Notes: generated from the sequence alone by a model not told the origin. A stretch of DNA of 64,000 nt from a virus (IMGVR_UViG_3300050821_010639:88047-152046); one strand, 5' to 3'; counted from the stretch's first letter, positions 35,901 through 62,510 are shown. Numbers and translations are program-made.

Positions 35901-38769
35901 GTCACCGATGACGGCCAGGTCCTCGGCCACGTGCGTGAGGGCCGTGGCCTGGATGAACTTGGCGACGATGACGCCCAGGGAGTCGAACCCCTGGCCGATG
36001 AGCGCGAGGTCCCTGGCGCCGACCGCCAGGAAATTCTGCAGCCCGCCTCCGCCGCCTTGCAGGGCGACGACGACCTTGGCGGCGAACCTGTCCAGGTAAC
36101 TGCCGGTCTGGTTGATGAGCTGGCCGAGGACGCCGGTCTTGTTGCCCGCCGCGGTCAGGTAGTCACCGAGCAGCTCGTAGACCTGCGGGCGGACCGCGTT
36201 CTCCAGCTTCTGGAAGTTGCTGGTCAGCGGCGGGATCGTGGTGTTAAGGGCATTGCCGACCGTGCTCAGGCTCTGCCACTGCTGGAAGATCTCCTTGAAC
36301 GACTGGTAGCCGGCCGCGCCGAACGCGATGAGCCCGGCCCCTGCCGTGACCAGGGCGGGCACCCACAGGGCCAGCACCTCGACAACGCTGTCCAGCAGGA
36401 TGTGCCAGAGGGCTACCTGGCCGATCATGTGCGTGTCGCCCAGCAGGCCCGACCACAACTGGACCTGCGTCCGCAGCAGGCCGATGCGCCAGCCCATGTT
36501 GACGGCGGCGTCGCTGTCGGCCTTCATCGCGGCGGCGGCCTTGGCCGCCGGGTCGGCCAGCCCGCCGAGCCCGGCCTTGACGTCGTACAGGGCGCGGCCG
36601 GCATCGGTCGCGGACTGGTCCGCGTCGCGCATCGCCTGGGCGATCTGCTCCCACGCGCGCGACTCGTCCGGGTCGGGCACGTCACCGCCGGGGTCGCCCG
36701 GAGGCGGCCCCCCGCCACCGCCGCCGCCGGAGGCGCCGCCCATGCCGGCGGTGACGCGGTTCTCCGCCGCGCGTGCCTCTTCCAGCTCGCGGACCCAGCT
36801 GGCCAGCTCCGCCTTGGCCGCGTCGTCACCGAAGCTGGCGTAGAACTCGTACTTGCGCTGGACCGCCTCGATGAGCGCGCTCATCCACCGGGACAGCCCG
36901 CTCTCGGCGCCGGTGTCCTCGAAGTCGGCGCGGGTGCCCACCTCGCGCTCAATGTCCTGGATGTCGCGGCTGTAGTCGCGGACCTCCTCCGACGCGCCGC
37001 TGGAGTCAACCACCAGGATGGTGTCCACCTCGTGCGGGATGTCGCGCAGGCCCTCGTCCAGCCCCTCGGCTGCCATCCGGGCCTGCTCGACCTCCTCGAA
37101 GTCGACCCCGAGCCGGGCCTGCGCGTGCTCGTTCAGGTGCGCCAGCTCGCTGGCCAGCAGCTGGGCCTCGGTAACCCCCTGCACGAGGCTGCCGTCCTCG
37201 ATCTCCGGGCGGGCCGGGTGGTCGTCCAGCCACTCCATCTCAACGGCGATCTTGTCCAGCACCTGCTCGGCTGCCGTGCCGCCCTGGACAGCTACCTTCT
37301 CAGTGGCCGTGCCGCCCTGCATGTACTTGCTCAGGCCGGACCACAGCTCCTCTTCCTCCGCCGGGCGGGCGACGACCTGCATGGGCGCGGGCACCGGGTA
37401 GCCGCGCGGGGCGTCGGAGATGACCCCCTCGCGCAGCGCCCCCGCGACGTCCTGCAGCCCGTAGAGGTCGGCGAGGTTCTGGTTGCGCTGCCCGGGAGTG
37501 ACAGGAGCTGCCCGCTTGCCCCGGCCGCCGCGCTGCGGGACGAACCGGGCGCCGGCCTCCGACAGCAGCTGCTCGGCCGCGGCGAGCCGCCCCAGGCCCT
37601 GCTCCAGCGCGCGGGCGTCAACCGCGGCGAGCGCGAGCGAGTCCTGGAACTTGGCGATGGCGTCGGCGGAGACCGCGGTCTTGTCATTCAGCAGCGCCAT
37701 CGAGCCCGCGAGCGCGCCGGTGCCGTCGGACGCGGCGGACAGCGCCTCTCCCGACAGGGGGCCTGGTCCTGACCCGGTGACGGCCAGCGGGGCGCGCAGC
37801 GCCTCCGGGCGGGCTCCGGCGACCGCCTGGGACAGCGCGCGGTTGACCGCCGCGTAGTCGATGTCCGGCCGCACGGAGACCGGCACCGTGGCGTGCTGCG
37901 GCGTGAGCGGGACACCGCCGAGGCGCGAGGCCACCGACACGATGTCCACCCGCTCGGAGCCCGGCAGCCCGAGTAGCGCCGCCCGGTAGGCGGCGAGCTG
38001 CGACATCGCCTGGCCGTCATCGAGCACCGCCTTGGTGACCACCGTGTCCGGCAGCCCGACCAGCGCCGCGCTGTAGGCGTTGAGCGCGCCCAGCCCCTCG
38101 CCGAGGCTGCCCGCCGTGGCGTGCGTGCCCTGCAGCGCGTTGGCGTGCGCGAGCAGCAGCTGGGTCTCGGCGCTGATGGCCGCGCTGCGGTCGCGGATAG
38201 CCGCCGACAGCGAGGCGGTCTGCATGGTCTCGCGCTGCAGGAAGCCCAGGTACTGGTCAGCGGTCTGGTAGCCGGCGAAGTGCGCCCGGTTCTCCAGCAG
38301 GGCGAGGTTGTACATCTGCTGGCGGTAGGACATGGCCTGCTGGACCGAGGAGAAGCCGAGCCAGTGCTGCCGGTTGAGCAGGGTGGTGTAGTTCAGCTCC
38401 TGACTCAGGTCACTCAGGTGCTGGGTCATGTCGTTCCGGCCGCCGTACAGCAGCTGGGTGTTAGTCGACTTGGCCGACTGGGCCAGCTGGGACAGGGCCG
38501 TCGTCTGCTGCTGGATGGCCTGGACGTCCCTGGCCCGCGCGGCAGCCGCCTGGGTAGAGCCCGTCACCTCGGCCGCGGTCTCCGCCTTGACCGCGTCCGA
38601 CATGCCCTGCAGCGCGGCCTTGGCCTCGGCCGCATCCCGCATCAGGCTGCCGAAGTCACCTGAATGTTAAACCGATCGCTTTGTAAATTACGTACCAAAG
38701 CGATCTAACCAATATTCTGGTCCCTCATAAGCCACAGCTGCGGCTCAGAGGCTCAGAATAAGGCGTCAT
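29943..38769 (-). CDS. Tape measure protein with C-terminal lytic transglycosylase-like domain; 5' end split by TTA inserts (contiguous ORF 38642-29943)
   Basis: ~2900 aa Ala/Gly-rich, Trp/Phe periodic repeats, EAGWNLNAQNPTSDAYGIAQF; follows the chaperone. Confidence 0.95.
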
Positions 38770-39489
38770 GAGCACCACCCCCTTCCGCATGAAGGGGCGC
38801 GAGCCCAGGTAATCAGGGAACCGCCAGGCCTGCCCGGTCTTTTCAGCCAGCCCGACCATCTGGTTGCAGGCATGGCACAACAGCCCGCGAATGCACTTCT
38901 TGCAGCAGTGCGTCTGCCCGGACTTCTTGGGCGGGCAGCAATTGTGGTCGTGGTCTACACAGAGGTACACGACACCCTTGCGAGTCTCCGGGCCGCCGTG
39001 AAGGGCGCACACGCCACCCTGCTGTGCTAGCAGCCAGGCGTACTCCTCCTGCGTGATGCCCATGCGCTTGAGCGCCCAGGCCCGGTACTCGCCGTTCCGC
39101 CGGCCTTTACGCGGCTCGCTCCAGCACTCGGTGCACCGCGACATACGCCCGCCTGGCTGTGTCGGCTTGCTCAGGTGGTACTGCTCCCAGGGCTTGTACT
39201 TGCCGCAGCTAGAGCACTCGCGCCCGTCAGGATCAATGCGGAACCCAGTGCCTCGATGACGCTCGGGGACATACGCGGGAGTTGGTCGTGCATAAGTCCC
39301 TGGCTTGCGCCGGGGAATGCCGAACTTGTCCAGCCGGTACCAGACGGCGGCCTGAGAGCAGCCGATCTCAGCAGCGATGTCCGGTGTAGACCTGGCCTGA
39401 CTGACGTACTGCTCGTGAAGCCAAGCCTTGTCGGCGAGCAGTGAGAGATTACGTTCCATGCTCTCTACTACGTGCAAAGCTCTAGCCAT
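38725..39489 (-). CDS. Endonuclease VII-like (HNH) homing-type endonuclease with N-terminal HTH
   Basis: GITQEEY..LL..QGGVCA...LCVDHDH.CC...IRGLLCHACN..VG; inserted between chaperone and tape measure. Confidence 0.9.
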   Translation of the reverse strand: MARALHVVESMERNLSLLADKAWLHEQYVSQARSTPDIAAEIGCSQAAVWYRLDKFGIPRRKPGTYARPTPAYVPERHRGTGFRIDPDGRECSSCGKYKPWEQYHLSKPTQPGGRMSRCTECWSEPRKGRRNGEYRAWALKRMGITQEEYAWLLAQQGGVCALHGGPETRKGVVYLCVDHDHNCCPPKKSGQTHCCKKCIRGLLCHACNQMVGLAEKTGQAWRFPDYLGSRPFMRKGVVLMTPYSEPLSRSCGL

Positions 39490-39492
39490 CTC

Positions 39493-40505
39493 TCACCCTC
39501 CCCTCCCCGGCATCGGCGGCGGACCTCCCATAAGGCTTAGGAAGGCTTCATAGCTTCCGGCCCCGTTGTCCGCCTCCACCCCGGCGTCAGGGTTGGCGGC
39601 TACCTTGCCGAAGCGCGGGTCGTCCTCCACCCGGTCAGCGACCTTGGGGCCGCGGATGCGGTCAAGCTCCTGCTCCTCGGGGCTCTTGCCGCCGAAGATG
39701 TCGATGGACTGTGCCATCTCAACCAGCGGGTTCCTGCCGCCGGTCTTCGACGTGTCCACCATCGCCTGCGCCCCGATGAACTGGCACACCATCTTCACCT
39801 GCCACTCAGCCAGCCTCAGCCGGGCCTTGTTCTCCCGGCCGCGCCGCGACTCCGCCGCCTCCAGGCACTGCCGGACCCGGCACAGCGGGAGGCCTAGGAC
39901 GTACTCGTCGGTCCACCCGTACTCGTGGCTGAGGACGTCGAACGCCGCCGCGAACGCGCCGGCGAGTTGAGGTCCCGCACCGTCGCCTCCGGCTCCGGCG
40001 GCTCCTTGTCCTGGCCCGTCTTGCGGAACAGGTCCAGGGTCCGCTGAAGCTTTTTTCCCAGGGCCTGCAGCTCCGGGGCCTCCCGGCGGATGATGTCCTC
40101 AATCAGGTCGAGGGTGTCGCCCAGCTCAGGGTTGTGCAGTTCCTCGTTGAACCGCGTCCACAGCGCCTGGTTGGCCTCGGTCTCCTGCTTGGTGAGCTGC
40201 GAGGCGGGCTTGTCCACGATGCCGGCTGGCCGGGTCATCGACGCCAGGAAGCCGATGGCCTCCTGCTCGGCGTCAGGAATCGACATGATGACCAGCATGA
40301 GCAGCTTCTGGCCGAACACCTCCGACCCGGCCGCGAAGTCGAGCCCGCTCTGGGCCAGCGCCGGGCCCGCCCCGTGGGTGAGCACGCGCAGCAGGCGGAA
40401 GAACTGGCGGGTCTGCATCCGCACCACTTCGACCTCGAAGCCGGTGGACAGCTTGCGGGCCTCAGGCTGCGGGTCGATGCGGTCAAGCTCGGAGTCGTCC
40501 GGCAT
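39493..40505 (-). CDS. Tail assembly chaperone G (40505-39894) and GT via a -1 frameshift at GGGAAAA (40059-40053)
   Basis: CTG GGA AAA AAG slippery site; the -1 frame is open to 39493 (AFDVLSHEYGWTDEYVLGLPL...). Confidence 0.9.
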
Positions 40506-40638
40506 GCGGTCCTCACAGGGACTCTCGGGGTCAGTTGTCCGAGCAATCGGCGAACAACGCGAAACGGCACGCTAGTCGCCGCCAGCGTACCGTTTCGTCT
40601 CTGTGTTCAGGAGGTACTCGTGCTATACCTCAGTCAAG

Positions 40639-40872
40639 CTACGGGTGCCCGCCCGCGTTGTCCTTCAGGTCCGGGTTCTTCTGCTGCTCTTCCAGGGCCT
40701 CGCCGCCGGTTACCAGGTTGTCCGGCTGCTCGGGCTTCTCCTCGGCCGGGTCGACCCCGGCCTCCGGCTGCCCCTGGGCCGTGCCCGCCGTGCCCGGCTG
40801 CGGCTCGGCCTCCACGGAGTCGCCGGCCGCGGCCTCGTCGCGAAGGGTCCTCTTGCGGTGCTTGCCCGCCAC
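40639..40872 (-). CDS. Small acidic protein
   Basis: Abuts the tail tube stop. Confidence 0.55.
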   Translation of the reverse strand: MAGKHRKRTLRDEAAAGDSVEAEPQPGTAGTAQGQPEAGVDPAEEKPEQPDNLVTGGEALEEQQKNPDLKDNAGGHP

Positions 40873-41532
40873 CTAGACCACCGTCCCGCCGCCGGCCCCG
40901 AAGGGCTCGGGCACGAACGCCCCGGTCTCGGTGCCCGGCATGGACACCAGGCGACCGATCGCGTTGCCGGCCGAGCCGGAGGTGCCGCCGTAGGCGGACG
41001 GCAGCGACACGCCGACCTCGTTGACCGTGGAGAACAGCGCGCGGCCCGCGATGCTGCAGCTCAGGCCGGTCTTGTACGACGGGCCGGTGAAGTTGAACGG
41101 CTGGAACTGCACGCGGTACAGGATGAAGTCCAGTGTCCGGATCTGCCCGCCGGCGTCCTTGGACGGCACCCGGATGGCCAGCGGCTGGGTGACCTGGTTC
41201 ATGCTCGCCAGGGTCCACAGCGGGATGGCGTAGTAGTCCGCGCCCGCGGCGCCGCTGGAAGTCACCGTCGTGCCGGTGATGTACGCGATAGTCGAGAAGG
41301 GGATGTACCCCTCCTCAATGGTCACGTTGGCGAAGTTGATCCAGAAGTGCTCGGAGAGGACGACGTCGTCGCCGGTGTTCTCGAAGTTGCCCTGGTCAGT
41401 GGAAATCGTGCCGTTGCGAACGCCGTAGACAGTCGCGCCCTCAGCCCCGGTCGAGCCGTTCAGGATGGCGGCGTGGCTGAGGGAGAAGCCCTCGAACGGC
41501 GTGCCCGCAAAGGTGTTGCTGGCGGTGGGCAT
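40873..41532 (-). CDS. Major tail (tube) protein
   Basis: Position before the chaperone; size and beta-rich composition. Confidence 0.8.
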   Translation of the reverse strand: MPTASNTFAGTPFEGFSLSHAAILNGSTGAEGATVYGVRNGTISTDQGNFENTGDDVVLSEHFWINFANVTIEEGYIPFSTIAYITGTTVTSSGAAGADYYAIPLWTLASMNQVTQPLAIRVPSKDAGGQIRTLDFILYRVQFQPFNFTGPSYKTGLSCSIAGRALFSTVNEVGVSLPSAYGGTSGSAGNAIGRLVSMPGTETGAFVPEPFGAGGGTVV

Positions 41533-41586
41533 AGTCTCGGGCCCTCTCCTGCTAGGCGGCGAACCTCGCAGGCCTAATCGGCTCGG

Positions 41587-42138
41587 CTACTTGTAAGCCT
41601 GGGTGCAGTTGACCGGCGCGAACGTGAGGTCCACGAAGGCGAGGAACTTCTGCTCCCCGGCCTTCTGCGCCGCGGTCTTCGGCGGCCCCGTGAGCTGGAA
41701 GATGTACTGCCAGAGCTGGCGCTGCTCAGCCCGGGTGTCGTTGCTGCTCGCGCAGTTGGCCAGCTGGGAGGCGTGCAGGGTCTCGCCCTGGGACAGGGCA
41801 CTCAGCGTCAGCAGGGTGACCACGACCGTGAGCACCACGTCGAGCACGATGGACACGCCCAGCCCGACGGCCAGCTGCCGGGTGCGGCGGCCGGCGGCCC
41901 GGTCGGCGACCTGGGCCGCCGTTACCGCCTGGAGGCCGCTGGTAACCAGCCCCAGGGCCATGCCCAGGGTCTCCAGGCGGGCCATGATCCCCGCCAGTGC
42001 CTCCTCCGACAGCATCACGGGCACGACCGCCTGCGGAACGTCTTCCGGCACTTCCTCAGGCGGAGCCTGGCCGACTGGCTCGAACTGCCCGGAGGCCGGG
42101 TTGTAGTTCAGCGGACCCTCTTCACCCGAGCTGTTCAT
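41587..42138 (-). CDS. Membrane protein (lysis cassette)
   Basis: TM helix LAVGLGVSIVLDVVLTVVV. Confidence 0.65.
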   Translation of the reverse strand: MNSSGEEGPLNYNPASGQFEPVGQAPPEEVPEDVPQAVVPVMLSEEALAGIMARLETLGMALGLVTSGLQAVTAAQVADRAAGRRTRQLAVGLGVSIVLDVVLTVVVTLLTLSALSQGETLHASQLANCASSNDTRAEQRQLWQYIFQLTGPPKTAAQKAGEQKFLAFVDLTFAPVNCTQAYK

Positions 42139-42304
42139 TGCCTTCTTCCTGGGCTCCGGCCTGGGCAGCGCCCAGAACCTGCTTCATCGTGAGGACGGTG
42201 GTGTTCAGGTCCGCGACAAGCTGCTCAGCGCGCAGCACCAGGGCATCGATCCGCTCGTCCGCGGCAGCCATGTCACGGCCCCGTTCCTCAGCCGTCATGC
42301 TCAC
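42122..42304 (-). CDS. Small coiled-coil protein
   Basis: Overlapping operon gene. Confidence 0.55.
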   Translation of the reverse strand: MSMTAEERGRDMAAADERIDALVLRAEQLVADLNTTVLTMKQVLGAAQAGAQEEGNEQLG

Positions 42305-42605
42305 CCTCCAGACGGGCCAGGCTCTGCTTGATCTGGTTCAGGGACTCGACAACGAGCGACAGCGCCGGCAGTACCTGCGAGGACTGCGACTCGATGAGGC
42401 GATCACGCTGCTCAATCGCCCGGTCCCGCTCCCGCTCCAGCTCCTGGCGCATCTTCTGCGCCTGGTCCCACAAGACGTCGGCCTCACTGGTCCGGACACT
42501 GCCGGCGGTCGTCCGCCGCCGCATCAGGTACGTGACAAGCCCGCTAGCCAGTCCCGCGCCGAACGCGGCCACGCTGGCAAGGGCGGCAATAGTCCCCGCG
42601 TCCAC
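42288..42605 (-). CDS. N-terminal TM plus coiled-coil protein (holin-adjacent type)
   Basis: TM helix followed by a coiled coil. Confidence 0.7.
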   Translation of the reverse strand: MDAGTIAALASVAAFGAGLASGLVTYLMRRRTTAGSVRTSEADVLWDQAQKMRQELERERDRAIEQRDRLIESQSSQVLPALSLVVESLNQIKQSLARLEGEHDG

Positions 42606-42616
42606 GAAGTGCGCTC

Positions 42617-43282
42617 CTACTTGCTGACGACCACGACGACGATGACGGCGGCCACGGAGATGACCACGGCCAGCAGCTGGAGGACCAGTCCCGTGTTCAG
42701 CCGCTGCTCGGTGCCATGCCGGCCGGCCCCGACGTCCTGGCCCTCGCCCCGGTCGATGCGCTCCTTCAGCTCAGCCAGCCGGTCACCGAACGTGTCCCCC
42801 AGTGCCTTGATCTGGGCCAGGAGAAGGTCGATCTGCTTGGTGAAGCTCAGCTCGGTCTTGTCCGCGGCCTTCGCCGCCGCCTGGGCCTGCTCGAACACTG
42901 CCTCCTTGGCGGCTTGCAGGGCCGCCGCCAGCGCGCTGGCGCTGGCGGTAGCCGCCTGGTCGGTCCGGACGTCCCGCTCACTGAACTGCTGGGCGATGCT
43001 GCTGAACCGCTCGTCAACCGTCGCCGAGCGGTCAGCGAGCTGCTGCTGCACGCTGGTGAACCGCTCGTCGTAGACCTCGCGGATGCCGGTCACCGCCGTC
43101 TGGATGGCGGTCGGGGTCCGGTTGACCGTCTCGGACAGCACCTGGGCGGCCCTGTCCATGGCATTCAGCCGGGTCTCGAAGATCTCGCGCAGCGACGACA
43201 GCTCGCGGAGCAGCTGCTGGGTGGTCAGCAGGGTCGGGTCGGGTCGCGGCGTCCAGTCGCGCGGCTCCTGCGGTACGGTCAT
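42617..43282 (-). CDS. Coiled-coil protein with C-terminal TM anchor
   Basis: Heptad pattern; hydrophobic C-terminus. Confidence 0.7.
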   Translation of the reverse strand: MTVPQEPRDWTPRPDPTLLTTQQLLRELSSLREIFETRLNAMDRAAQVLSETVNRTPTAIQTAVTGIREVYDERFTSVQQQLADRSATVDERFSSIAQQFSERDVRTDQAATASASALAAALQAAKEAVFEQAQAAAKAADKTELSFTKQIDLLLAQIKALGDTFGDRLAELKERIDRGEGQDVGAGRHGTEQRLNTGLVLQLLAVVISVAAVIVVVVVSK

Positions 43283-43294
43283 GCACGGCCCCGG

Positions 43295-44092
43295 CTAGAC
43301 GCCTGACATGTCCGCGAGCAGCTGCTGCAGGTCCAGGCCCTCCACGGTGGTGCCGTTAGCGGTCAGCCAGTCCTGCGTGACCACCGCCCACGCCTCCTCG
43401 GCCGCGTGCGCCTGGAAGCTGACAGTGGCAGGCTGCAGGGCTCCCCAGGTGACGTACTCCAGCGGGGCCTTGCCCGAGCCGAGGCGGCGCTGCAGGCAGA
43501 TGGCGTGCCCGCCGATGACCTCGCCGCCGCGCTTCCACGTCCACGGCTGCTGGTCGGAGAACTCGGTCTCCATCTGCTGCTGCACGTTGATGCCGACGTA
43601 CACCGTGCCGAACACGTCGAGCACCTGGCCGAGCAGGGTCTCGTCCGCCGGGTTGCCGAACGCCGCGTAGCCGGCCACCGTGTGCACCTTGCCGCTGGCG
43701 TCGGTGATGCCGGCTGACTGCTGGTCGGCGAGCACGTCCTACATGACGCAACCCTGGTCCGTGGACGGGTCACCGGGGACGTAGCCGCCCACCCGGGAGT
43801 ACACCGCCTGGATCTGGTCATCGGCGAACAGCGCCTCAGCGGCCCCCGCGTACGTGGACCACGCGCCGTACATGTGGCCGACGGCGGCGATGGCGCAGTC
43901 CTCAAGCTGGTCGTTGAGGTACATGGGCCAGGACGTCACCGCGCTGGCCCGGTCGACGTCCGTGGCCAGCGGCACCGGCGGCAGCCCGGCCGCGCTGAGC
44001 GCGACCCGCGGGTCCAGGTACTTCTCCAGCGTCAGCCGGGGCCGGGCGGGGTCCGGGTGCCGGCGTCCGTACTTGCCTGCCTGCCGTGGCAT
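43295..44092 (-). pseudogene. Papain-like cysteine peptidase interrupted by one in-frame TAG (43741-43739)
   Basis: LNDQLEDCAIAA...GGHAI...VTWG read in a single frame across GCVM*DVLAD. Confidence 0.75.
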
Positions 44093-44149
44093 GCTGCCTC
44101 CTGCGTGACGAAGGGCGAGCCCAAGACCCTGGCTCGCCCTTCCGATCGG

Positions 44150-44683: not shown

Positions 44684-44702
44684 GCCCCCAGTTTAGCATG
44701 CG

Positions 44703-52704: not shown

Positions 52705-52710
52705 GGCTGC

Positions 52711-53689: not shown

Positions 53690-53714
53690 TGCCGCCACCT
53701 CCTTCCGGTGCGCA

Positions 53715-53747
53715 AGAAGACCCCGGCCGCCATAGCCGGGGTCTTCT
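53715..53747 (-). terminator. Terminator after the capsid gene
   Basis: AGAAGACCCCGGC-N7-GCCGGGGTCTTCT. Confidence 0.75.
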
Positions 53748-53776
53748 CTGTACTGGGCTCGATGACAGGCTCCAGG

Positions 53777-54982
53777 CTAGTCGATCGGGCTGCCGCCCCC
53801 GACGACGCCCATCGAGCCAGCGTAGTAGCCGGCCGGGGCATTGCCGCCGTTGGAGACGATGTTGGTCGCCACCAGCATCTGCTCGGGCCGGGTGATGATA
53901 GGGAGCATGTGCCACTCCAGCAGGTACTGGCGGGCCGAAGGGTCCTTTTCCTTCCAGGTCTTCGCGTACTTGCCGGTGAAGCCCTCGGGGGCCTCGTCGT
54001 CGGCGGTCGGGCCGATCAGCACTTCCACCGGCCGCTGATCCTGGTAGTTGCCCATGTAAATCTGGCCGTCAGGCACGAAGAACGTCAGGTTGCCGAGGTC
54101 GGACTCGAAGACCTGCTCCACCGTGGTCCAGACGAGGCCCATGAAGCCGGTCATGATGCCGGTCGAGTAGAACTCGTCCTTCATCCGGTCACTCAGCATG
54201 GTGGCCGGGATCGACACGGTGGACGCCTGGGTGGCCGAGACCCACGCCTCCATCAGGGCGACCATGGTCACCGAGGTGGCGAAGATCTCCTTGGCCGGCA
54301 CCCGGCCGTGAACCTGCAGCAGCCTCTTCCAGGACCGGACGTCCTCGATGATGCTCACCGGCGTGGCGTAAGTGACGGTGCCGCCGGAGTTCAGGTTGGT
54401 GTTGGCCTGGCCCAGGGTGGCCGCGTTGCCCGGCGCGCCGCTGTTGGTCGAGCTTCCGCCCGCGGTGTAGTAGCCGAGCGCGGTGTTGGTCACCCACGCG
54501 GTCGCCGGGACGACGAAGTGGCTGCGCGGGAACTTGTAGTCGATCGTGGCCTGGACGTCGGCGTAGTTGTACTGGATCGCGCCGCCCAGCGCCTGCCACG
54601 CCGACCACTCGGCGAAGTTGTCGAACCGCTGGTTGAGGTCGTTGATCTCCCTCAACACCGCGCGCTCGGCGTTGATGCGGGCGATCTCGCCCGGGGTCCT
54701 GAGCCAGTGCAAAGTGGTGGGCTCGAAGACCTTCTTCTCGCGAAGGTAGATGAAGCTCGCCGACTCCTGCGAGCGGCCGAGGCGCGAGATGATGTGCGCT
54801 TCGCTGTTGGGCACGTTCGGCTTGGCGACCGCGCGGCTCCCCTTCACCACGTCCCAGGTAGCGCTGGGGAAAGGCCAGGGGGTCTGGTCCAGCCGGTTGA
54901 GCAGCAGGAGGGTCTCAGGCGTCACGAACTTCTCGACGACCCCTCGCAGCACAACTGGCTCAAGAAGGCTGATATCAGGCAC
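53777..54982 (-). CDS. Major capsid protein (lambda gpE-like family)
   Basis: 401 aa; EW.AWQAL.G.I, IDY..P..H, W...DPS....L...MLP. Confidence 0.9.
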   Translation of the reverse strand: MPDISLLEPVVLRGVVEKFVTPETLLLLNRLDQTPWPFPSATWDVVKGSRAVAKPNVPNSEAHIISRLGRSQESASFIYLREKKVFEPTTLHWLRTPGEIARINAERAVLREINDLNQRFDNFAEWSAWQALGGAIQYNYADVQATIDYKFPRSHFVVPATAWVTNTALGYYTAGGSSTNSGAPGNAATLGQANTNLNSGGTVTYATPVSIIEDVRSWKRLLQVHGRVPAKEIFATSVTMVALMEAWVSATQASTVSIPATMLSDRMKDEFYSTGIMTGFMGLVWTTVEQVFESDLGNLTFFVPDGQIYMGNYQDQRPVEVLIGPTADDEAPEGFTGKYAKTWKEKDPSARQYLLEWHMLPIITRPEQMLVATNIVSNGGNAPAGYYAGSMGVVGGGSPID

Positions 54983-55119
54983 TGCTAGCCCCTCATGTCC
55001 GGGTTCGCTCGGTTAGTCAGCGACCCGGGATTCCGAGTCCGGCCTGCGCCGCCCCGGGAAGGGGCCACATGGCTGGCCTGGCCGCGCCACGGCGGTTACC
55101 CCGTCCTATCGGACACGGC

Positions 55120-55159
55120 AAAAAGCCGCGCCCCGGGGGCTCGCATCCCGGGGCGCGGC
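55120..55159 (-). terminator. Rho-independent terminator
   Basis: GCCGCGCCCCGGG stem followed by TTTTT. Confidence 0.8.
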
Positions 55160-55191
55160 AGTGGCGGTTTACCGCTTAACCGTCAATATCA

Positions 55192-55518
55192 CTAAGCAGG
55201 CGGCACCAGGGTGTTGAGCCCGCCGACCGAAGTGTCCAGCGCTGCCTGGTTCTGCGCGAGCGAGGCGACCGCGGCGTTGAGGTCCGAGGTGTCCACGTTC
55301 TGCGGCAGGGCCGCGAGCGCGGCCTGGATATTGGTCACGTCGGTGCCGATGGCGGCCGACTGGGCCTGAAGGTCACCCATGGTCGCGTTGATCTGGGTGA
55401 CCGCCGCGTTGATGTCGTCTTGAGCTGCCACGATTTCTCCTAGCTTGCCGTCGATCTGGGACAGCCTCTGGTCCAGCCGGCGCTCAAGCGCGGCAAGGTC
55501 TGCCCGGGTAACCCACAC
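55192..55518 (-). CDS. Coiled-coil hypothetical protein
   Basis: Heptads; GTG 14 nt after CCGATA. Confidence 0.65.
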   Translation of the reverse strand: MWVTRADLAALERRLDQRLSQIDGKLGEIVAAQDDINAAVTQINATMGDLQAQSAAIGTDVTNIQAALAALPQNVDTSDLNAAVASLAQNQAALDTSVGGLNTLVPPA

Positions 55519-55535
55519 GCCGGGGCTATCGGTCA

Positions 55536-56225
55536 CTAGAAGATGAAGGCGTTGACCCCGACACCGGTCGGCACGACGCCGGCGGCCGACGGGGGGACGC
55601 CGTCCATCGGGCCGCCGGGGAACGGGGCGCCGAGGGAAGCGCCGGAGACCGCGCCGCCGTAGGGGACGTACCGGGCACCGAGCAGCACCATCGCCTGGCC
55701 CGCGCCGGAGCCGAGGCCCTGGCCGTTGATGATGTTGGTCGTGTCGGTGCCGGAGACCACGTTGCCGTTGAGGATGCCGCGGATGACCATGTTGCCGAGC
55801 GCGTCGCCGGCCACCTTGCCCCCCGGGCTCGCCGGGAAGACGACCGCGCCGCCGGCCAGCGTGATGCCGCCGGGGTTCACGTTGTTGGTTCCGGCGTTGT
55901 AGGCCGACAGGCTGGCCGCGCCGGGGCCGCCGGTGTCGCGACCGTCGCGCAGCACGCCGACCGGGACCTGCCGCCCGTCGGTCGCGCCCGCCTGGTAGGA
56001 GAAGTACTTGCCGGAGGCGACGTGCCGGGCGATGATGCAGCCGGTCGGGAGCACGCCCTGGCCGGCCGCGAGGGTGACCCCGCGCTGGGTGAAGCCGGCG
56101 TAGCTGAGCAGCAGCTCCTGGACGGCCTCGGCGTGAAACTCGTCGCCGAACCCCTGGCCGTACTCGTGCGTCGGCTTGACGTACCCCGGCGGGTAGTCGA
56201 ACTCGAAAGAGTCACTCTGTGGCAT
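55536..56225 (-). CDS. Head decoration protein (gpD-like)
   Basis: VTLAAGQGVLPTG...SGKY..Y...ATDGRQVPVGVL; precedes the capsid gene. Confidence 0.85.
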   Translation of the reverse strand: MPQSDSFEFDYPPGYVKPTHEYGQGFGDEFHAEAVQELLLSYAGFTQRGVTLAAGQGVLPTGCIIARHVASGKYFSYQAGATDGRQVPVGVLRDGRDTGGPGAASLSAYNAGTNNVNPGGITLAGGAVVFPASPGGKVAGDALGNMVIRGILNGNVVSGTDTTNIINGQGLGSGAGQAMVLLGARYVPYGGAVSGASLGAPFPGGPMDGVPPSAAGVVPTGVGVNAFIF

Positions 56226-56256
56226 CAGCCGCGCTCCTCGCTGCGCCTATCCCCGG

Positions 56257-57396
56257 TTACTGCCGGGTCCCGTCGGAGGTGAAGAAGTCCTTGTGCTGCG
56301 CGGTGAGCCGCGCCACCTCGGCGTCGATGTCCTGCTCCTGGCGCTGCTCGCCGTCCGGGCCGGACAGCCCCACCTGCTGGTCGAGCTTCACGTACGGACG
56401 GTCAGCCGGGGCGAGGATGGCGTCCAGGTCATCGCGGCGGGACAGCGCCATCTCGATGGCTGCAGCCCTGGCCTTGGGCAGCAGGCGGCCGGCCCCGATG
56501 TAGCCGTCCACCTCGGTCATGGCCGCCCGGCGCTGCAAGCCGGTCACCGTCTCGCGCAGGCCCTTGTTGTCCGCGGCCAGCTCGACCACCGCAGCGGTGA
56601 CGTCGGACAGGCTCACCGTGCCCGGGTCAGCGGACAGCTGGAACGTGCCCGAGTCCTTGAGTGCCTCCGCGACGGCGACGGGCAGCGCCTGCATGAACTC
56701 GGCCGACAGCGCGGCGGCGTCCGGGGCCGCAGTGGCGGCGGCCTGCAAGGCGGCGACGTCGATGCCGTGCTCGTTCTTCAGAGCGGCGAGCAGCTCTTCC
56801 CTGGTAAGCGGCACGGTTTCCTCCGGCACGGGAGTCAGGACGACGACTTCTCCGGTGCTATCGGCTGACGCGGCAAGGACTTCCTTGTAGTCGTCTAGGT
56901 CCACGCAGTACGGCCGGTTTGTCACCGCGACGTGGAGGAGTGTTGGGCCGACCTTCTTGTCAGTCCGCGTATCGGTGTAGTTCGTGCTCAGGAACGCAGA
57001 CGCACCCAGGTACGTCTTGCCGAGGCGGGCCGCCGCCTGCTCGTCGCGCGCGTCGATGAGGGCGTACACCTTGTCACCACGGGACTTGATGCCGACGACT
57101 TCACCGATGTTGGCATCAGGGTTCTCCACGTGCTCGTTCCTCGCGTTAGCGAGGGGCACCTGGACGATGGGACAGACTCCGGCCTTGAAGTTCGCCTCCA
57201 TCGCAGACACGAAGCCATCGTCAATATTGATCCGGACCTTGGTCACCGGATGAATAAGCGGGCCTTTGTTGAGGATGTGCTTTTCGAACAGCCGGCCTGT
57301 GACCTGGCGCGACCGGGCCAGCTCCACCGGGACGTCCTCAACCGGCCGGAAGGCTCCGCCAGGGGCGGGCACGATGTAACGAAGGTCATCGCCCAT
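56257..57396 (-). CDS. Prohead protease/scaffold (Mu gpI-like)
   Basis: M..NF, N.H, YLGASA, GPTLLHVAVTNRPY; helical C-terminal scaffold. Confidence 0.85.
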   Translation of the reverse strand: MGDDLRYIVPAPGGAFRPVEDVPVELARSRQVTGRLFEKHILNKGPLIHPVTKVRINIDDGFVSAMEANFKAGVCPIVQVPLANARNEHVENPDANIGEVVGIKSRGDKVYALIDARDEQAAARLGKTYLGASAFLSTNYTDTRTDKKVGPTLLHVAVTNRPYCVDLDDYKEVLAASADSTGEVVVLTPVPEETVPLTREELLAALKNEHGIDVAALQAAATAAPDAAALSAEFMQALPVAVAEALKDSGTFQLSADPGTVSLSDVTAAVVELAADNKGLRETVTGLQRRAAMTEVDGYIGAGRLLPKARAAAIEMALSRRDDLDAILAPADRPYVKLDQQVGLSGPDGEQRQEQDIDAEVARLTAQHKDFFTSDGTRQ

Positions 57397-57516
57397 GCCC
57401 CGGGTAATCGGACTAAAGCGGAAACGTCCTGGCCTCGGGGTTCAGCACCACGTACCGGCCGAACCGCTGACCCGCCTGAACAAACCTCCTTGGCGTTCCC
57501 ACACGTCTTACTACGC

Positions 57517-57735
57517 CTAAGGCGTCTTCCGCCTGCGGTAGCTGAAGGCAGGCGACCGGGCCATGATGTCGTCGGCTGCCTGGCGGAGGATGTCCTCTGC
57601 CAGCGACGGGTCAGTTTTCGCCACCCGGGCAGCCCTGCGCACGCTGGCCGCCGCATCGTCCAGCCCGGCAGCCTCCAGGCGGTCGGCGATCTCGGCTGCC
57701 TCGGCCGGTATGTCCCCGTCCTGCCGGATGATCAT
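57517..57735 (-). CDS. Hypothetical helical protein
   Basis: AGAGG RBS; -10 TAGACT upstream. Confidence 0.6.
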   Translation of the reverse strand: MIIRQDGDIPAEAAEIADRLEAAGLDDAAASVRRAARVAKTDPSLAEDILRQAADDIMARSPAFSYRRRKTP

Positions 57736-57742
57736 GTTTCCT

Positions 57743-57772
57743 CTTGACTGGAGTCTAGCAATCGTGCAGAAT
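57743..57772 (+). promoter_or_regulatory. Divergent promoter plus degenerate operator
   Basis: TTGACT-N17-CAGAAT; CTTGACTGGAGTCTAG. Confidence 0.65.
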
Positions 57773-57822
57773 GGGTTCCGCTGCAGCAGTCCGTGCAAAC
57801 TTCTACGGCAGGAGAACAGCAA

Positions 57823-58047
57823 GTGCAGACGGCAGGACATCAGGCCGGCCCGACCTGGGTCAAGAGTTCGCTGAGTTTCGCGAACGGCAACTGCGTTGAG
57901 GTAGCGAGCCTGTCCGGCGGCGAAGTTGGCGTCCGGAACAGCAGGGATGCTGCAGGCGCGGTTCTCCGCTTCACGCCAGACGAATGGCGCGCGTTCATCG
58001 GTGGCGTTCAGAGCGGCGAATTCGACAGGTTCGGCCAGCAGGGCTAA
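57823..58047 (+). CDS. DUF397 (BldB-like) protein
   Basis: WVKSSLS..NGNCVEVA...VGVRNSRD..G.VLRFTPDEWRAFI.GV..GEFD. Confidence 0.95.
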   Translation: MQTAGHQAGPTWVKSSLSFANGNCVEVASLSGGEVGVRNSRDAAGAVLRFTPDEWRAFIGGVQSGEFDRFGQQG

Positions 58048-58197
58048 CTCGTCAGCGTCAGGGGCCGCGGTCCCGTCAGCGTCAGCAGCCCCCGGGTCGA
58101 TGGTGACCCGGGGGCTGCTTTCATTCTCCGGCGGCGGCTCCGGCTCCTCGCGCACGGCCCACTCACCGTCGTCCCGCGTCACCCACTCACTGCCCAT
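58045..58197 (-). CDS. 50-aa acidic protein, apparently ending at an in-frame TTA
   Basis: Late motif at -14; TTA at 58047-58045 is the complement of the DUF397 TAA stop. Confidence 0.5.
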
Positions 58198-58203
58198 ACA
58201 GCG

Positions 58204-58437
58204 CTAATCGGGCTGGTACTCCACCAGGCCGGGCACGCCGGCGAGGACCGTGGCGGCGCGCTCCAGGTCGTCCTCGGTGCCGGAGACGGTCAGCCCGCCG
58301 TCGGTCATGGAATGGATGTCGAGAGGGCCGAAGACGTACCGCACCCGGTGCTCCCTGGCGTACTCGAACAGCGTGAGCACGGCCAGCGCGTAAGAGACGT
58401 TGCCGTCCGCGAACCACTGGCGCGTCTTGTCAGCCAC
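58204..58437 (-). CDS. Hypothetical protein
   Basis: Coupled ORF. Confidence 0.6.
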   Translation of the reverse strand: MADKTRQWFADGNVSYALAVLTLFEYAREHRVRYVFGPLDIHSMTDGGLTVSGTEDDLERAATVLAGVPGLVEYQPD

Positions 58438-59434
58438 CGCCCCCTGCCAGTCTCTTCAGCATTTGGTCAAGTTCGTGGACAGCCGCCCGCAGGAACGCGG
58501 AGTCGGCCTCGTACTCATCGGCGGGCATGTCCTGGATGTCACCTGCGGAGATGAAGGCGGCCGGCACCTGCCCGTCATCCGAAGGTACGTCGGCAGTATC
58601 GCCAGTGCGTACGATTTCCAGCCGGCACCTGCAGAAGGGGTGCAAGAGCGGCCCTTGCAGCTTACCGTGGTACGGACGCGGAGGGTGCGTGTAGACAATC
58701 CTGTGGCCGACGGGCAGCCCGTACTTCCGCTCCCCCGCCTGGGTGGCCACGCGGCGCTCACCGGACTGCGGCATGGCGGCCGGCCCGCCCAGGTAAGGGG
58801 CGAACGACTCGCGCAGGCCTATCGTCACCCCGTTCAGCTTCCGGCACCAGTAGCAGCACGACGCGCTCTCGGCGTGCGCCCGCCACCGCTTGCTCAGCCG
58901 CTCGCCCCGTGCCTCGCGCGCCAGGGCATCGCCGAGCGCCGCGGCCGACGCGCCGGAGCCCTCGGCCGTGTGCGCTGCCATGCGGGCCCGCAGGGCGGCC
59001 TGACGGCCCCAGGACAGCAGGGCGTCCCGCACGGCGCCCGCGCGCTCCTCGGCCGCCCTCTGGTCCGGGTGCTCGCCCGGCGGGGTCACCCCGCGGATGA
59101 ACGCCCGCCGCGGCACCGAGGCGTGCGCGTGCCGGACCAGGCCGCGCAGGCGGGCTACATCCCCGAAAATCGCGCCGGTGTCGTCCAGCAGGTGACCCAG
59201 TACCCCGTCGTCGCCGCTCAGCGCGCCCGAGGAGTACCAGGCCTGGCGGACCAGCTCCTCCGCTGCCGAGCGCGCCTCGTCCAGGGCCTGCTGGAGTACG
59301 GCGTCGGTGTCCGGCCGGCGCAGCAGCGCGTCCGCCGAGCCCGCGGGGTTGTTGCGGGTAACCAGCGCGAGGTACCCGGCCGCCTCCGCGACAGCCTGGC
59401 GGACAACGGCGGCCAGCTGGTCGGGCGCGGCCAC
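58430..59434 (-). CDS. Head morphogenesis protein (Mu gpF/SPP1 gp7-like)
   Basis: KRW...CCYWCRKLNG...PLLHPFCRCRL. Confidence 0.85.
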   Translation of the reverse strand: MAAPDQLAAVVRQAVAEAAGYLALVTRNNPAGSADALLRRPDTDAVLQQALDEARSAAEELVRQAWYSSGALSGDDGVLGHLLDDTGAIFGDVARLRGLVRHAHASVPRRAFIRGVTPPGEHPDQRAAEERAGAVRDALLSWGRQAALRARMAAHTAEGSGASAAALGDALAREARGERLSKRWRAHAESASCCYWCRKLNGVTIGLRESFAPYLGGPAAMPQSGERRVATQAGERKYGLPVGHRIVYTHPPRPYHGKLQGPLLHPFCRCRLEIVRTGDTADVPSDDGQVPAAFISAGDIQDMPADEYEADSAFLRAAVHELDQMLKRLAGGGG

Positions 59435-59435
59435 G

Positions 59436-59921
59436 CTACTCCGGGTTAAGCGTGCCGCGAAACGACGTGCGCCGGTCAACGTCCGTGGACTCGACCGTGA
59501 CCAGGTACGGGTCCCAGCCCGGGGCGTGAACCGGCTTGTAGGGCCGCGCCCAGTCGCGCGGCCCGGTGTCCCCCTCGCTGGCCAGCGCGAAGTCTTCCAT
59601 GCGCTCGTGCAGGTCCACGTCGCCTAGCCGGTCGAACAGCCACCGCGTCCACGACTGCGCGTTGTACGTCGCCGGGGGCACCGGGAAGTAGTGGTTCACG
59701 TCCATCTGCTGCGACGGGTCGTAAGTGTTCGTGCCGTGCCGCCCGACGACTAGCGTCAGGCCGCGTGACTCGCCGCTGTGGCGGCCGGGCTTGTCCCGCT
59801 GGCAGTCATCCTCAAGCCACACGTTCCAGCCGAGGTGGTCACGGTAGCGGAGCCAGCTGACAAGCTCCGCGAGGATCGCGGGGTACGGGGCAACCTGCTG
59901 CATCTGACGGTCATCGCTCAC
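59436..59921 (-). CDS. Hypothetical protein
   Basis: HYFPVPPATYN..W.RW...HE..E motif. Confidence 0.7.
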   Translation of the reverse strand: MSDDRQMQQVAPYPAILAELVSWLRYRDHLGWNVWLEDDCQRDKPGRHSGESRGLTLVVGRHGTNTYDPSQQMDVNHYFPVPPATYNAQSWTRWLFDRLGDVDLHERMEDFALASEGDTGPRDWARPYKPVHAPGWDPYLVTVESTDVDRRTSFRGTLNPE

Positions 59922-60214
59922 TGCCCGGCAATCGGAGGCTGGCCCGGCGGCCCAGGCGGCGCCGGGGGCACGGGCGGCTGCATGTGCACGTAAGCGAGGC
60001 CGGAGATGGTGTCGCCCGGCGGGACCACCAGGTTTACCCCTAGCTGCGGGTACACGGCGCCGGCCCCCGTCTTCGGCGGCGGCACCGTCGCCGGCGTCAC
60101 GGGCGCGACGGGAGGCTGCCCCGGGGCCAGGGCAGCCAGCTCCAGCGCGCGCCCGGCGGCGATCTCCTCAACGAGGTCGCGGGCAAGCGCCACCATGGCG
60201 TCGTGCGCGCTCAC
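59918..60214 (-). CDS. Pro-rich hypothetical protein
   Basis: GTGA coupling. Confidence 0.6.
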   Translation of the reverse strand: MSAHDAMVALARDLVEEIAAGRALELAALAPGQPPVAPVTPATVPPPKTGAGAVYPQLGVNLVVPPGDTISGLAYVHMQPPVPPAPPGPPGQPPIAGQ

Positions 60215-61829
60215 CCGCCCAGCCCGTTCCCCTTGCCGGCCTGCCCGACCGCGCTGCCCCCGGCGGCCGAGGTACCGGTGGCGGTGGTCTGGGAGCCGAC
60301 TGGCACCTTGATGTGCACTACCGGCTGCTGCGGGGACCCGCCCTTGCCGGCCTGGACCGGGTTCTGCTGCTGTTGCTGCGCCTGCTGGGCCGCGGCCTTC
60401 TGCTGGGCGGCCATCTGCTTCTGCTGCTTCTCGCGGTCGGCCTTGATCTTGTCGTAGTCGATGTCGAAGCCGAAGTCGCCGGCGAGACGCTGCTCCAGCT
60501 CCAGCATGAACTCGGGCGTGACGTTGGCCTGCTGCCCAGCTGTGGCGAGCTTATCGAAAGTATCCTGGATAGCCGCCTTGGCTTCCTCGGTCAGCGGGCC
60601 CCACTTGAAGCGCGGGTACATGTCACTGCCGAAGTTCCAGTCGACAAAGCGCGGGAAGATGTGGTCGTTGATGACCTGCGCCATTTCCTCCAGGATGCCC
60701 TCTAGCATGAGGAAATAGGTCACGTCGTCCTGCTTGCCGAAGTCGACCAGTGTGCTATCCCCCTGGCCGCCGCCCTGCTCATTGTCGAACCACTGAGCGA
60801 GAACGCTCTTCGACATCTGGGAATTGTGGTGGTTGATCAATCCCAGGAAGTCAAAGCGCGACGCCGACTCGTTCAGCGTCTGCACGGTCCAGTCGGCCGT
60901 GGGGAGCGCGATGTACTGCGCGAGCCCCAACTGGGCCAGCGCCTTGACGAAGTTGTTCTTGTCCTCCGCCGGCGCATTGGGGACCATCGTGCCCACGCGC
61001 AGGCCTACCGCCGCCCTTTGCGCTGCCAGGTGCGCGATGTAGTAAAGCTTTTCCTTCTTGTCATAGTGATAAAAGGCGCTCTCGAACATGGACACGCCGT
61101 AGAACGGGCGTTCGGCTTCCTCGTGCGCGTAGTACAGCGCGGTTTCCTTCGGGATCTTGACGTCGATCGTCCGTCCCTGGAAGAACGTGCGCTGCCGGAA
61201 GCCGTTGAACTCGCCCTGGCCGTCAAGCAGGAAAGTGAGGGTCTCCGAGGGGCGCCAGTCCATCTTCCGGAGCGTCCACTTGCCCTTGTTGGGCCCCGTC
61301 TTGGGCTGCCAGTAGACCATCTCCCAGGCGCTGAACCCGTTGAACAGCGCGAGCAGCATCTGCTTGACGAACCTGTCGAAGGAGTGAGTCATCCCGCCGG
61401 CCGCCCGCGGGGCGAACAGCAGGTCCTTGCAGAACTGCGCCTCCTCGACCCCGCCCTCCTGGCCGTCGGCGGGCACCACGTCAGCGTTCTTCATCGCCGA
61501 CAGCAGGGGCTTGGTCAGCAGCCGGTACAGCGCCCTGGCCTGGCCGTCGCGGCGGCGCATGGTGACCAGCTGGCGAATTGAAACTGGGTCATCGCGGAAG
61601 ATTTCCCAGCTGTCCCGGTACGGGGTCGCGAAGGGGAGGAAGTACGGGACACCAGGTTAAGCCGACCGCGAAGTTCTGGGCCTCATCCGGCGGACGGACA
61701 AGCGACTGCTCGTCCTGAAGAACGTAACCTTCCTGGCCGTAACCCTGCGTGGCTTAAGGTGACGCCCATTCCTCCGGGCGGCTGCACGCTGGCGGTGTAT
61801 GAGCCTTGTCCCGAACCTGGGGTCGTCAT
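60211..61829 (-). CDS. Portal protein (DUF935/Mu gp29-like); 5' end split by two 10-nt TTA inserts (contiguous ORF 61560-60211)
   Basis: MLLALFNGFSAWEMVY, PFYGVSMFESA, INHHNSQMSKSVLAQ, N.HIFPRFVDWNF; RBS GGAGGTG before ATG 61829. Confidence 0.9.
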
Positions 61830-61835
61830 ATGGCA

Positions 61836-62510
61836 TCACCTCCCCCTGCAGACAGGAGGCAGCGCCTCGCGGACCTGTTCACCTCCCGTCTGATCGGTTA
61901 GTGCTTCCTCGATGTGCGGAGGCAGGGTCTTCCACCAGTGCTCAGGCCGTCGCAAGTGATGCGACACGCAAAGCGTCACAAGCCAGCGAGGGTCGTTAAC
62001 TGGCCGCAGCCGGTACGGGATGACATGGTGAACGACTAGCCCAGCACCAGACGGAATGAACTCTCCGCCGTCCTGGCAGCTGTAGCCGTCGCGCTCAAGA
62101 ACAGCCCGACGGATCTCCGGCCACGTCGCCCCCCGGTAAGTCCGCTCCGAGGGCGAACTGCCACCTCGGAAGTTCGGGTGGGCATCCCCGCGCAGCCAGT
62201 AGTCCCGAATGCCCGTCAAGCCGAGGGCAGACGCCTTATGCCGCACAGCGCCCTCTGAACGGCCAGTCAGCTCAGCAACAGCCCCTAGCGGCATGTCAGG
62301 TTCCGCTAGGAGTTCTAGCTCCCACGGCTCCCAGCCACGCTGCCAGCTTCGGGCCTTACCCTTGCCGCCTTGGCAGAACACCCGGTTCACTCCGAGCTGG
62401 GAGGCTTTCGTACTAGCGCCAGCCAATGTACGGCCCGTTCGCTCCGCCACCTCAGCCAGCGACAGCGACGTGTCCCGCAACAGTGCTAGCTCAGCCTCAG
62501 TCCACCGCAA
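61836..62510 (-). CDS. HNH endonuclease with N-terminal HTH repeats
   Basis: W.EIRRAVLERDGYSCQ...LVVHHVIP...N....LVTLC.SHH; its stop overlaps the portal RBS. Confidence 0.9.
   Translation of the reverse strand: MRWTEAELALLRDTSLSLAEVAERTGRTLAGASTKASQLGVNRVFCQGGKGKARSWQRGWEPWELELLAEPDMPLGAVAELTGRSEGAVRHKASALGLTGIRDYWLRGDAHPNFRGGSSPSERTYRGATWPEIRRAVLERDGYSCQDGGEFIPSGAGLVVHHVIPYRLRPVNDPRWLVTLCVSHHLRRPEHWWKTLPPHIEEALTDQTGGEQVREALPPVCRGR

Follow-up and report, generated by a model that had tools for sequence, protein, structure and literature searches.

To our knowledge, programmed translational bypassing is among the rarest decoding modes, the solid cases being gene 60 of phage T4 with its relatives, one yeast mitochondrion and one proposed Streptomyces phage terminase. 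Here, a 64,000-nt stretch of a viral genome (IMGVR_UViG_3300050821_010639, 88047-152046; hereafter the window, in which positions are counted from the first nucleotide) was analysed, in which the portal gene and the tape-measure gene each contain two short gaps beginning with TTA and each adjoin a homing-type endonuclease gene. The source is a 152,046-bp IMG/VR virus record of a soil actinophage with 69.6% G+C, rated complete, and the window is its right 64 kb. The minus strand holds the virion genes, including all genes concerned here. The nearest cultured relative is Microbacterium phage Magritte; the portal identity is only 53%, and the host is therefore taken to be a high-G+C actinobacterium. 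In a DNA search of a phage collection, the sole match to the portal gene was a Microbacterium phage portal (65% identity), and the tape-measure region had no match.

The closest parallel in arrangement is T4 gene 60 with MobA (Huang 1988), where, as here, a homing endonuclease gene adjoins an essential gene with an untranslated gap near its 5' end. As summarised by Manning and Atkins (bioRxiv 10.1101/2022.08.31.505936) from Bonocora et al. (2011), the gene 60 bypass protects against MobA nicking. In T4 the gap shields its carrier, and nuclease and gap move as a cassette; for the present phage we only infer protection. Take-off and landing codons are matched in both systems (Gly in T4 gene 60, Gly in two of the four window gaps), and in both, nuclease pseudogenes or remnants have been left behind while the gap persists. 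The gap is 50 nt long in T4 and 7-14 nt long here, and the take-off codon is followed by a stop in T4 and by the rare sense codon UUA here. T4 has a take-off stem-loop and a nascent-peptide signal, whereas no nascent-peptide signal was evident here and a hairpin was present only at the tape-measure gaps. Unlike T4, the phages studied here have two or three gaps to a gene, placed at many alternative sites, and the system involves four or more target genes and nucleases of at least two or three unrelated families. No sequence homology of these nucleases to MobA was found. Functionally the arrangement resembles the T4 cassette; by homology it does not belong there.

The closest parallel in gap design is found in the large terminase genes of the Streptomyces phage phiHau3 and of the StrepC.1 and S. 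catenulae prophages, which contain 7-10-nt UUA gaps (Smith et al. 2013; Antonov et al. 2023, PMC10732093). For a 10-nt UUA gap of the phiHau3 terminase gene, mass spectrometry demonstrated bypassing in E. coli; the junction peptide there was found for the g6/g7 gap with UUA changed to UAA (PMC10732093). An in-frame UUA after the take-off codon (Gly in phiHau3), a broken frame, flanks that are contiguous in relatives, a landing codon and the setting in a high-G+C actinophage are common to phiHau3 and the window. The phiHau3 gaps interrupt the terminase gene midway, have no adjacent homing nuclease and have been read as a lysis/lysogeny sensor; those described here occupy the 5' ends of portal, tape-measure, capsid and exonuclease-like genes, co-vary with nuclease genes and also include lengths of 4, 13, 14 and 15 nt. 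The mitochondrial byp elements of Magnusiomyces capitatus (Lang et al. 2014) resemble the present gaps in being short, in occurring many times per gene and in showing matched codons and signs of mobility. They differ in that they form GC-rich hairpins of 27-55 nt in an A/T-rich mitochondrial genome, have no known nuclease partner and belong to another translation system. Among the free-standing homing endonucleases of T-even phages (seg, mob), carriers are immune via target-site polymorphism, and flanks are co-converted. Those genes and the present ones have in common an intergenic position beside conserved genes, patchy distribution, decayed copies, mosaic flanks and silently recoded targets. 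Immunity to seg and mob nucleases is due to substitutions or introns, and a frame-breaking insert rescued by recoding is known there only for MobA. The parts are known, namely the logic of T4 gene 60 and MobA and the gap design of phiHau3; decoding signal, gap length, nuclease families and target genes differ from T4. Full-text literature searches retrieved no paper linking UUA gaps to homing nucleases.

Gaps were defined by alignment against insert-free relatives and then by in silico excision. About 130 related sequences were compared in all. For the portal gene, 49 related loci were fetched and 43 upstream regions were aligned; the dereplicated lineages numbered 33 with the window counted. 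The tape-measure sample comprised 10 related loci, and the capsid sample 78 loci (48 assessable lineages). Scans for TTA gaps inside the genome, based on codon-position G+C and on take-off/landing match, were too noisy, missed gaps near gene starts and were replaced by the comparison with relatives. An indel scan over five whole genomes recovered only gaps that BLAST could align through.

The portal gene (60211-61829, minus strand; Pfam Portal_Mu, 2.9e-35) starts at ATG 61829 directly behind a free-standing HNH homing-type endonuclease gene (61836-62510, minus strand). The nuclease product matched 11 PHROG families, 10 of which are annotated as HNH endonuclease (best match PHROG 8446, 8.6e-15); the Pfam HNH search did not reach 0.01 for this product. 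A repeated helix-turn-helix-like motif lies in its N-terminal part and the HNH domain in its C-terminal part. Upstream of the tape-measure gene (29943-38735, minus strand) lies a free-standing EndoVII-type (His-Me finger) homing-type endonuclease gene (38725-39489, minus strand; Pfam Endonuclease_7, PF02945, 1.4e-12; PHROG endonuclease VII, 2e-23). It separates the tail assembly chaperone genes from the tape-measure gene, overlaps the start of the latter and encodes a protein with a helix-turn-helix-like N-terminus. Neither nuclease has a paralogue anywhere in the genome, and a sequence search against solved structures returned nothing significant. The initial annotation had stated that both bypass genes of the window adjoin homing-type nucleases, and that these belong to two different families. 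This is correct for portal and tape-measure; the count of two may be low, as a minor tail gene (GTG 29040) is a candidate third.

In the portal sample, gaps were present in all five lineages with an upstream HNH gene or a 3' remnant of it, and in none of the 28 nuclease-free lineages (Fisher p=4e-6). The five gapped lineages, with the window counted, contain 11 gaps at eight codon positions within the first 216 nt. An HNH homologue upstream of the portal gene was found in only four of the 43 loci (L005, L027/L028, L041; 41-42% identity, same PHROG family), and in the L016/L018-L024 group only the last ~60 nt of the portal-side HNH gene are left. The portal gap sites coincide with the nucleotide blocks of highest conservation (P=0.012), a target-like placement. 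We consider it likely that the nuclease-linked gaps are self-immunity marks, which would be tolerated through ribosome hopping.

The same pairing was seen at the tape-measure gene, where all five loci with a nuclease or a remnant were gapped, involving two nuclease families and three independent gap sets. L051 has an EndoVII gene (68% identity) and the window's two gaps, L055 a 48-codon EndoVII remnant and both gaps, L058 an EndoVII gene at 41% identity with a 4-nt gap at another site, and L059 a distinct HNH-type nuclease with a 10-nt gap at a fourth site. EndoVII is absent from six related tape-measure loci, four of which are clean, with L052 and L054 having one 10-nt gap each. In the relative G002, three EndoVII genes each adjoin a gapped gene, namely the tape-measure gene, the major capsid gene (GTT[TTAAGTT]GAG, gap in square brackets) and an exonuclease-like gene (CAT[TTAGCAT]GAC).

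In the capsid sample, which served as an independent test on a gene not flagged in the initial annotation, gaps were found in 3 of 11 EndoVII-adjacent lineages vs 1 of 37 nuclease-free lineages (p=0.033). Four lineages have the gap after GTT (codon 16), and L113, the capsid locus of which has its upstream flank cut off, has it two codons earlier, after GGT. The share of A/T-ending codons among capsid codons 1-22 was 0.42 in nuclease-adjacent lineages vs 0.20 (p=2e-5), with no difference at codons 40-100. Gaps and local A/T recoding together indicate that nuclease carriers alter the target-like stretch either by a gap or by silent recoding. Where EndoVII genes lie downstream of the capsid gene, the next gene is uninterrupted; further EndoVII copies occur at other sites in relatives. 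A check of co-occurrence in relatives, as had been proposed with the initial annotation, was thus positive in three genes (portal, tape-measure, capsid).

Individual capsid loci were recorded as well. TTA gaps of 7 or 10 nt at about codon 14-16 of the major capsid gene were seen at L063:3640-3700 (the G002 gene) and in L117, L182, L158 and L113. The window's own capsid gene (53777-54982) has neither nuclease nor gap. Its codons 1-22 (54917-54982) are 36% A/T-ending vs 20% in a typical nuclease-free lineage, without a nuclease being present; this excess may be a relic of an earlier nuclease.

The only UUA gaps described before have been read as regulatory (PMC10732093), and the present gaps could likewise be sensors that couple virion-gene expression to the charging of the host's UUA-decoding tRNA, with the nucleases merely favouring the same intergenic spots. 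A sensor would be in line with the phiHau3 terminase gene, which has no adjoining nuclease, with gaps that outlast the loss of a nuclease and with the location of the tape-measure gaps within a significant hairpin. It leaves unexplained the portal co-occurrence (5/5 vs 0/28) and its repetition in three other genes with different nucleases, the position of all gaps no more than about 220 nt from the nuclease and in conserved DNA blocks, and the silent recoding at the same spot in gap-free, nuclease-adjacent alleles. We regard the sensor reading as unlikely; regulation could be a secondary effect of the gaps.

Mosaic profiles were consistent with joint transfer. Overall, the window portal gene is nearest to the nuclease-free lineages L002 and L003; its first 120 nt show 88-95% identity to the HNH-bearing L005 vs 68-78% to L002 and L003. 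At the tape-measure locus, window positions 38800-38651 are 94-98% identical to L051, and just past the second gap L051 falls to 86% while nuclease-free relatives climb to 92-94%. Breakpoints lie ~10-40 nt past the gaps. Such profiles look like co-conversion tracts in which nuclease, gap and nearby flank would have been transferred as one block, and they fit the spread by co-conversion that had been suggested for the window.

The HNH stop codon TGA (61838-61836) is located 6 nt ahead of the portal ATG, and the portal ribosome-binding site GGGGGAGG lies inside the HNH 3' end, so that the nuclease gene ends on this site as originally described. The first portal gap has 7 nt (61751-61757, minus strand; ACC[TTAAGCC]ACG), with ACC (61760-61758) as take-off codon, GCC at its 3' end and TAA in the +1 frame. 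None of the 28 nuclease-free lineages has it, and at this site the HNH-bearing L005 reads TTAGACC. The second gap has 10 nt (61651-61660, minus strand; GGC[TTAACCTGGT]GTC), with take-off at GGC (61663-61661), landing at GGT, one tRNA-Gly(GCC) for both codons and again TAA in the +1 frame. It is missing from G001-G004 and all nuclease-free lineages, and L041 has a 15-nt gap at this site. Only with both gaps skipped does the portal gene encode a single protein (533 aa), and after excision its N-terminus lines up with those of the 28 uninterrupted relatives. A reading of TTAA as one codon of four bases was considered and rejected: it opens the portal frame, but adds residues that relatives lack.

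Two further features were noted in the portal leader region. The 3' end of the HNH gene contains, at 61837-61861 (minus strand), an anti-Shine-Dalgarno stretch, UGCCUCCU, which is able to base-pair with the Shine-Dalgarno sequence of the portal gene, GGGAGGUG. A hairpin at this place is kept via differing sequences in relatives with the HNH gene or its remnant; the fold alone is non-significant (z=-1.1). In the group that has lost the portal-side HNH gene (L018, 3290-3680), the 440-nt spacer contains three copies of a ~25-nt motif (GGCCATCG...GCTTCC...).

The start of the tape-measure gene was placed by homology at GTG 38735, which overlaps the EndoVII stop. Nuclease-free relatives open with (G/A)TG followed by codons for AYEGPEYWYVIYKAIGDFG, and the window shows the same codons from GTG 38735 once the gaps are excised. 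With both gaps skipped, the product has 2921 aa. The first gap has 14 nt (38695-38708, minus strand; TGG[TTAGATCGCTTTGG]TAC), with TGG as take-off (38711-38709) and landing codon and TAG in the +1 frame; it is missing from six nuclease-free relatives and from L058 and L059. In L055 this gap is one base shorter (13 nt), with the TGG landing codon retained and the stem kept via a compensatory change. Its length is therefore free to vary by one base, as that of a translated segment could not be. The second gap has 13 nt (38658-38670, minus strand; GGT[TTAACATTCAGGT]GAC), with GGT as take-off (38673-38671) and landing codon and TAA in the +1 frame. At the same codon, G001 and L054 bear other 10-nt gaps without any nuclease. 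A hairpin with a 10-bp stem (38674-38705, minus strand) is formed by pairing of the first gap with the coding sequence after it, and in an outer stem the second gap pairs with the take-off region of the first. The predicted RNA fold of 38650-38740 has -27.6 kcal/mol (z=-3.2), and none of 200 shuffles was as good.

For this gene the initial annotation had proposed an EndoVII frame that runs through the tape-measure start and closes with GGC TTA TGA, together with one long hop. The ending is as described, TTA being the last sense codon. By homology, the in-frame start is replaced by GTG 38735, which lies inside the span of the EndoVII frame but in another frame, and one long hop is not what the relatives indicate. 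An alternative start at ATG 38769 (38721-38769, minus strand; uncertain) has a strong Shine-Dalgarno sequence GGAAGGGGGTGG, much better than that of GTG 38735, and is followed by 13 codons in the EndoVII frame. Its use would need a third, 10-nt hop, GGC[TTATGAGGGA], across the EndoVII stop. The TTA in GGC TTA TGA derives from an ancestral GCT TAY that is present in nuclease-free relatives too and is therefore weak evidence for a hop. A start at ATG 38769 with a third hop is possible but unsupported by the relatives' sequences.

In each of the four window gaps, TTA comes first, in frame and immediately behind a sense codon, and a matching codon comes last. The take-off/landing pairs are ACC/GCC, GGC/GGT, TGG/TGG and GGT/GGT, with ACC and GCC agreeing at two of three positions. 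Unskipped reading runs into a stop within 4-23 codons, and in the insert-free lineages (28 for portal, 4 for tape-measure) the gap flanks are adjacent. The gaps lie 79-85 and 176-185 nt past the HNH stop (portal) and 17-30 and 55-67 nt past the EndoVII stop (tape-measure), in agreement with the ~200 nt from the nuclease reported earlier. The surrounding DNA is A/T-richer, as had also been noted, with G+C contents of 0.56-0.57 at 38600-38799 and 0.62-0.65 at 61600-61899 vs 0.70 genome-wide.

Across the phage family 23 gaps were collected, all of which start with TTA. Their lengths are 7 nt (8 gaps), 10 nt (9), 13 nt (2), 4 nt (2), 14 nt (1) and 15 nt (1), so that 21 of 23 have the form 3n+1. 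A purine follows TTA in 19 of the 23, which creates TAA or TAG in the +1 frame (p=0.0013). By our own reading of the alignments, the landing codon is an exact copy of the take-off codon in about 14 of the 23. TTA is very rare in the genome (15 of 43,148 codons, 0.035%). The phage has 35 tRNA genes (genome positions 3336-8466, outside the window) for nearly all amino acids. They include Leu-CAG, Leu-GAG and Leu-CAA as well as those for the take-off codons (Gly-GCC, Thr-GGU, Trp-CCA). A tRNA-Leu(UAA) is missing from the phage and four relatives (five genomes with 33-37 tRNAs each). From these features, ribosomes probably hop over the gaps.

The predominance of 3n+1 lengths, each of which shifts the frame by +1, would also be expected if ribosomes made a single +1 frameshift at the slow TTA instead of hopping over the whole insert, and +1 shifting at hungry codons is well known. 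A simple +1 shift is ruled out where TAA or TAG opens the +1 frame, which is the case in 19 of the 23 gaps and in all four of the window. It would moreover add 1-4 residues to invariant blocks that are restored exactly by full excision. The 14-nt and 15-nt gaps do not fit, and the phiHau3 junction peptide reflects bypassing. We regard a +1 shift as very improbable.

The sequence having been assembled from a metagenome, the interruptions might also be errors of assembly, or mutations that inactivated a dead genome. The same gap design recurs in independent assemblies from many samples, however; purifying selection acts on the flanks, the landing codon matches the take-off codon and the start is always TTA. 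Four essential genes are hit, in genomes rated 97-100% complete. Such an origin is extremely improbable.

In the explanation that we prefer, two selfish, free-standing nuclease genes would each have inserted directly upstream of an essential virion gene. Each would have brought along, or have selected for, a rewritten, A/T-richer first 70-180 nt of its neighbour with two non-coding gaps. By interrupting the recognition sequence of the nuclease, as present in nuclease-free phages, these gaps would keep the carrier genome uncut. In mixed infections, nuclease, gaps and nearby flank would be copied together into cut genomes. During translation, the ribosome would stall with the very rare UUA in the A site, for which the phage's 35-tRNA set holds no decoder. 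The peptidyl-tRNA would then quit the take-off codon and re-pair at an identical or near-identical landing codon 4-15 nt downstream, where the right frame would resume. On this model, hopping, its efficiency and the protection from cleavage are predictions; the gap anatomy, the restored proteins, the co-occurrence with nucleases and the mosaic breakpoints were observed.

Several observations weigh against this explanation. The portal-site HNH proteins are only ~41% identical to each other, whereas the adjoining portal stretch shows 88-95% identity; since the HNH bodies diverge far more than the flank, the mobile unit is not simply a whole gene plus flank. Lineage counts are phylogenetically non-independent, although gap sites differ. 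RNA folding gave no significant structure at the portal gaps (z=-0.3 and +1.0). Scarcity of the UUA decoder during infection is assumed for the host. The G002 major capsid protein, needed in hundreds of copies, would depend on a highly efficient hop or on an unseen alternative start. Gaps without a nuclease occur in L052, L054, L117 and phiHau3, and nucleases without a gap in eight capsid lineages and in G005, where an EndoVII gene precedes a glycosyltransferase gene. Gap or nuclease alone, which according to the initial annotation would speak against the link, was thus found in a minority of cases, and the association was not erased by it. Other gaps lie beside decayed nuclease remnants (L018 group, L055, L158). 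The exceptions fit the life cycle of homing genes (invasion, fixation, decay) combined with immunity by silent substitution. The pairing of nuclease and gap is a tendency, not a rule.

The gapped alleles without a nuclease in L052, L054 and L117 bear on a further possibility, in which the gaps would be scars of imprecise rejoining (e.g. end joining) after a nuclease cut. Only hop-capable scars would survive, and they would mark resistant victims first and nuclease carriers second. In keeping with this, a 3-nt direct repeat flanks each gap, and different gaps recur at one codon across lineages (three portal sites, one tape-measure site, one capsid site). A 2-nt TT insertion is present at the minor tail gene start. 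Most gapped alleles, however, have a nuclease or a remnant together with a cassette-type flank common to other carriers, and selection for landing codons explains the repeats equally well. Repair scars have in our estimation a small probability; they are a rival on origin only and share the logic of target-site disruption with self-immunity.

A wider proposal can be made, which is tentative and to which we would give somewhat less than even weight. UUA hopping may be a general and efficient tolerance mechanism in large high-G+C actinophages that has been exploited by several unrelated nuclease families. Each nuclease variant would make its carrier immune by planting, where it cleaves a conserved gene, a 3n+1 gap (TTA, usually a purine, and at the end the take-off codon again). 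The gaps at different codons would form a record of an arms race among nuclease specificities, even major capsid protein could be produced via a hop, and the phiHau3 gaps would be relics of this process.

In this phage family, four essential genes contain dozens of very short gaps that are independent and obey a simple common grammar, and the set amounts to a natural mutational series from which the requirements for ribosome hopping could be worked out. A tie to at least two nuclease families would extend the single MobA example to a general principle, in which an insert ignored by the ribosome protects its carrier. In view of the link to nucleases, the phiHau3 gaps too may have had a different origin. 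Gapped genes are split or cut short by gene callers (the N-termini of the window portal and tape-measure proteins were missed), and annotation pipelines for actinophages therefore need a gap rule.

At the start of the minor tail/fibre-like gene (29017-29040, minus strand), relatives begin at GTG and then encode (V/T)QWR(F/Y)Y-S-N. An insertion of 2 nt, TT (29019-29018 in the window), is present in the window and in G003; it produces TAC-TTA and changes the frame. The downstream frame is opened, as MALLLSN, by an ATG at 29032 that is formed from CAATGG. An EndoVII gene lies directly upstream of the minor tail gene in G003, and none is present there in the window. The insertion is perhaps a third alteration linked to a nuclease, in this case with rescue by a new start codon and not by a hop.

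Other nuclease genes were also inspected. No TTA gap was found near a small 100-aa HNH gene (genome 46.2-46.5 kb) or a GIY-YIG domain (window ~11.8 kb). G001 contains an extra small HNH gene (141240-141710) at a site that is empty in the window's genome, with no coding gap nearby. A 13-nt 'insert' at G001 position 141156 was rejected as a gap, being an intergenic inverted repeat beside that HNH gene.

Upstream of the capsid gene (window ~55000-55100, L105-L182), a leader conserved in nearly all relatives consists of GGCGGCGCAGGCCGGGC, a short variable hairpin and GTCGCTG. A CGATT-containing motif precedes several late genes (among them portal, minor tail and the gene after capsid). The capsid leader and the CGATT motif are possibly a late promoter or an RNA element.

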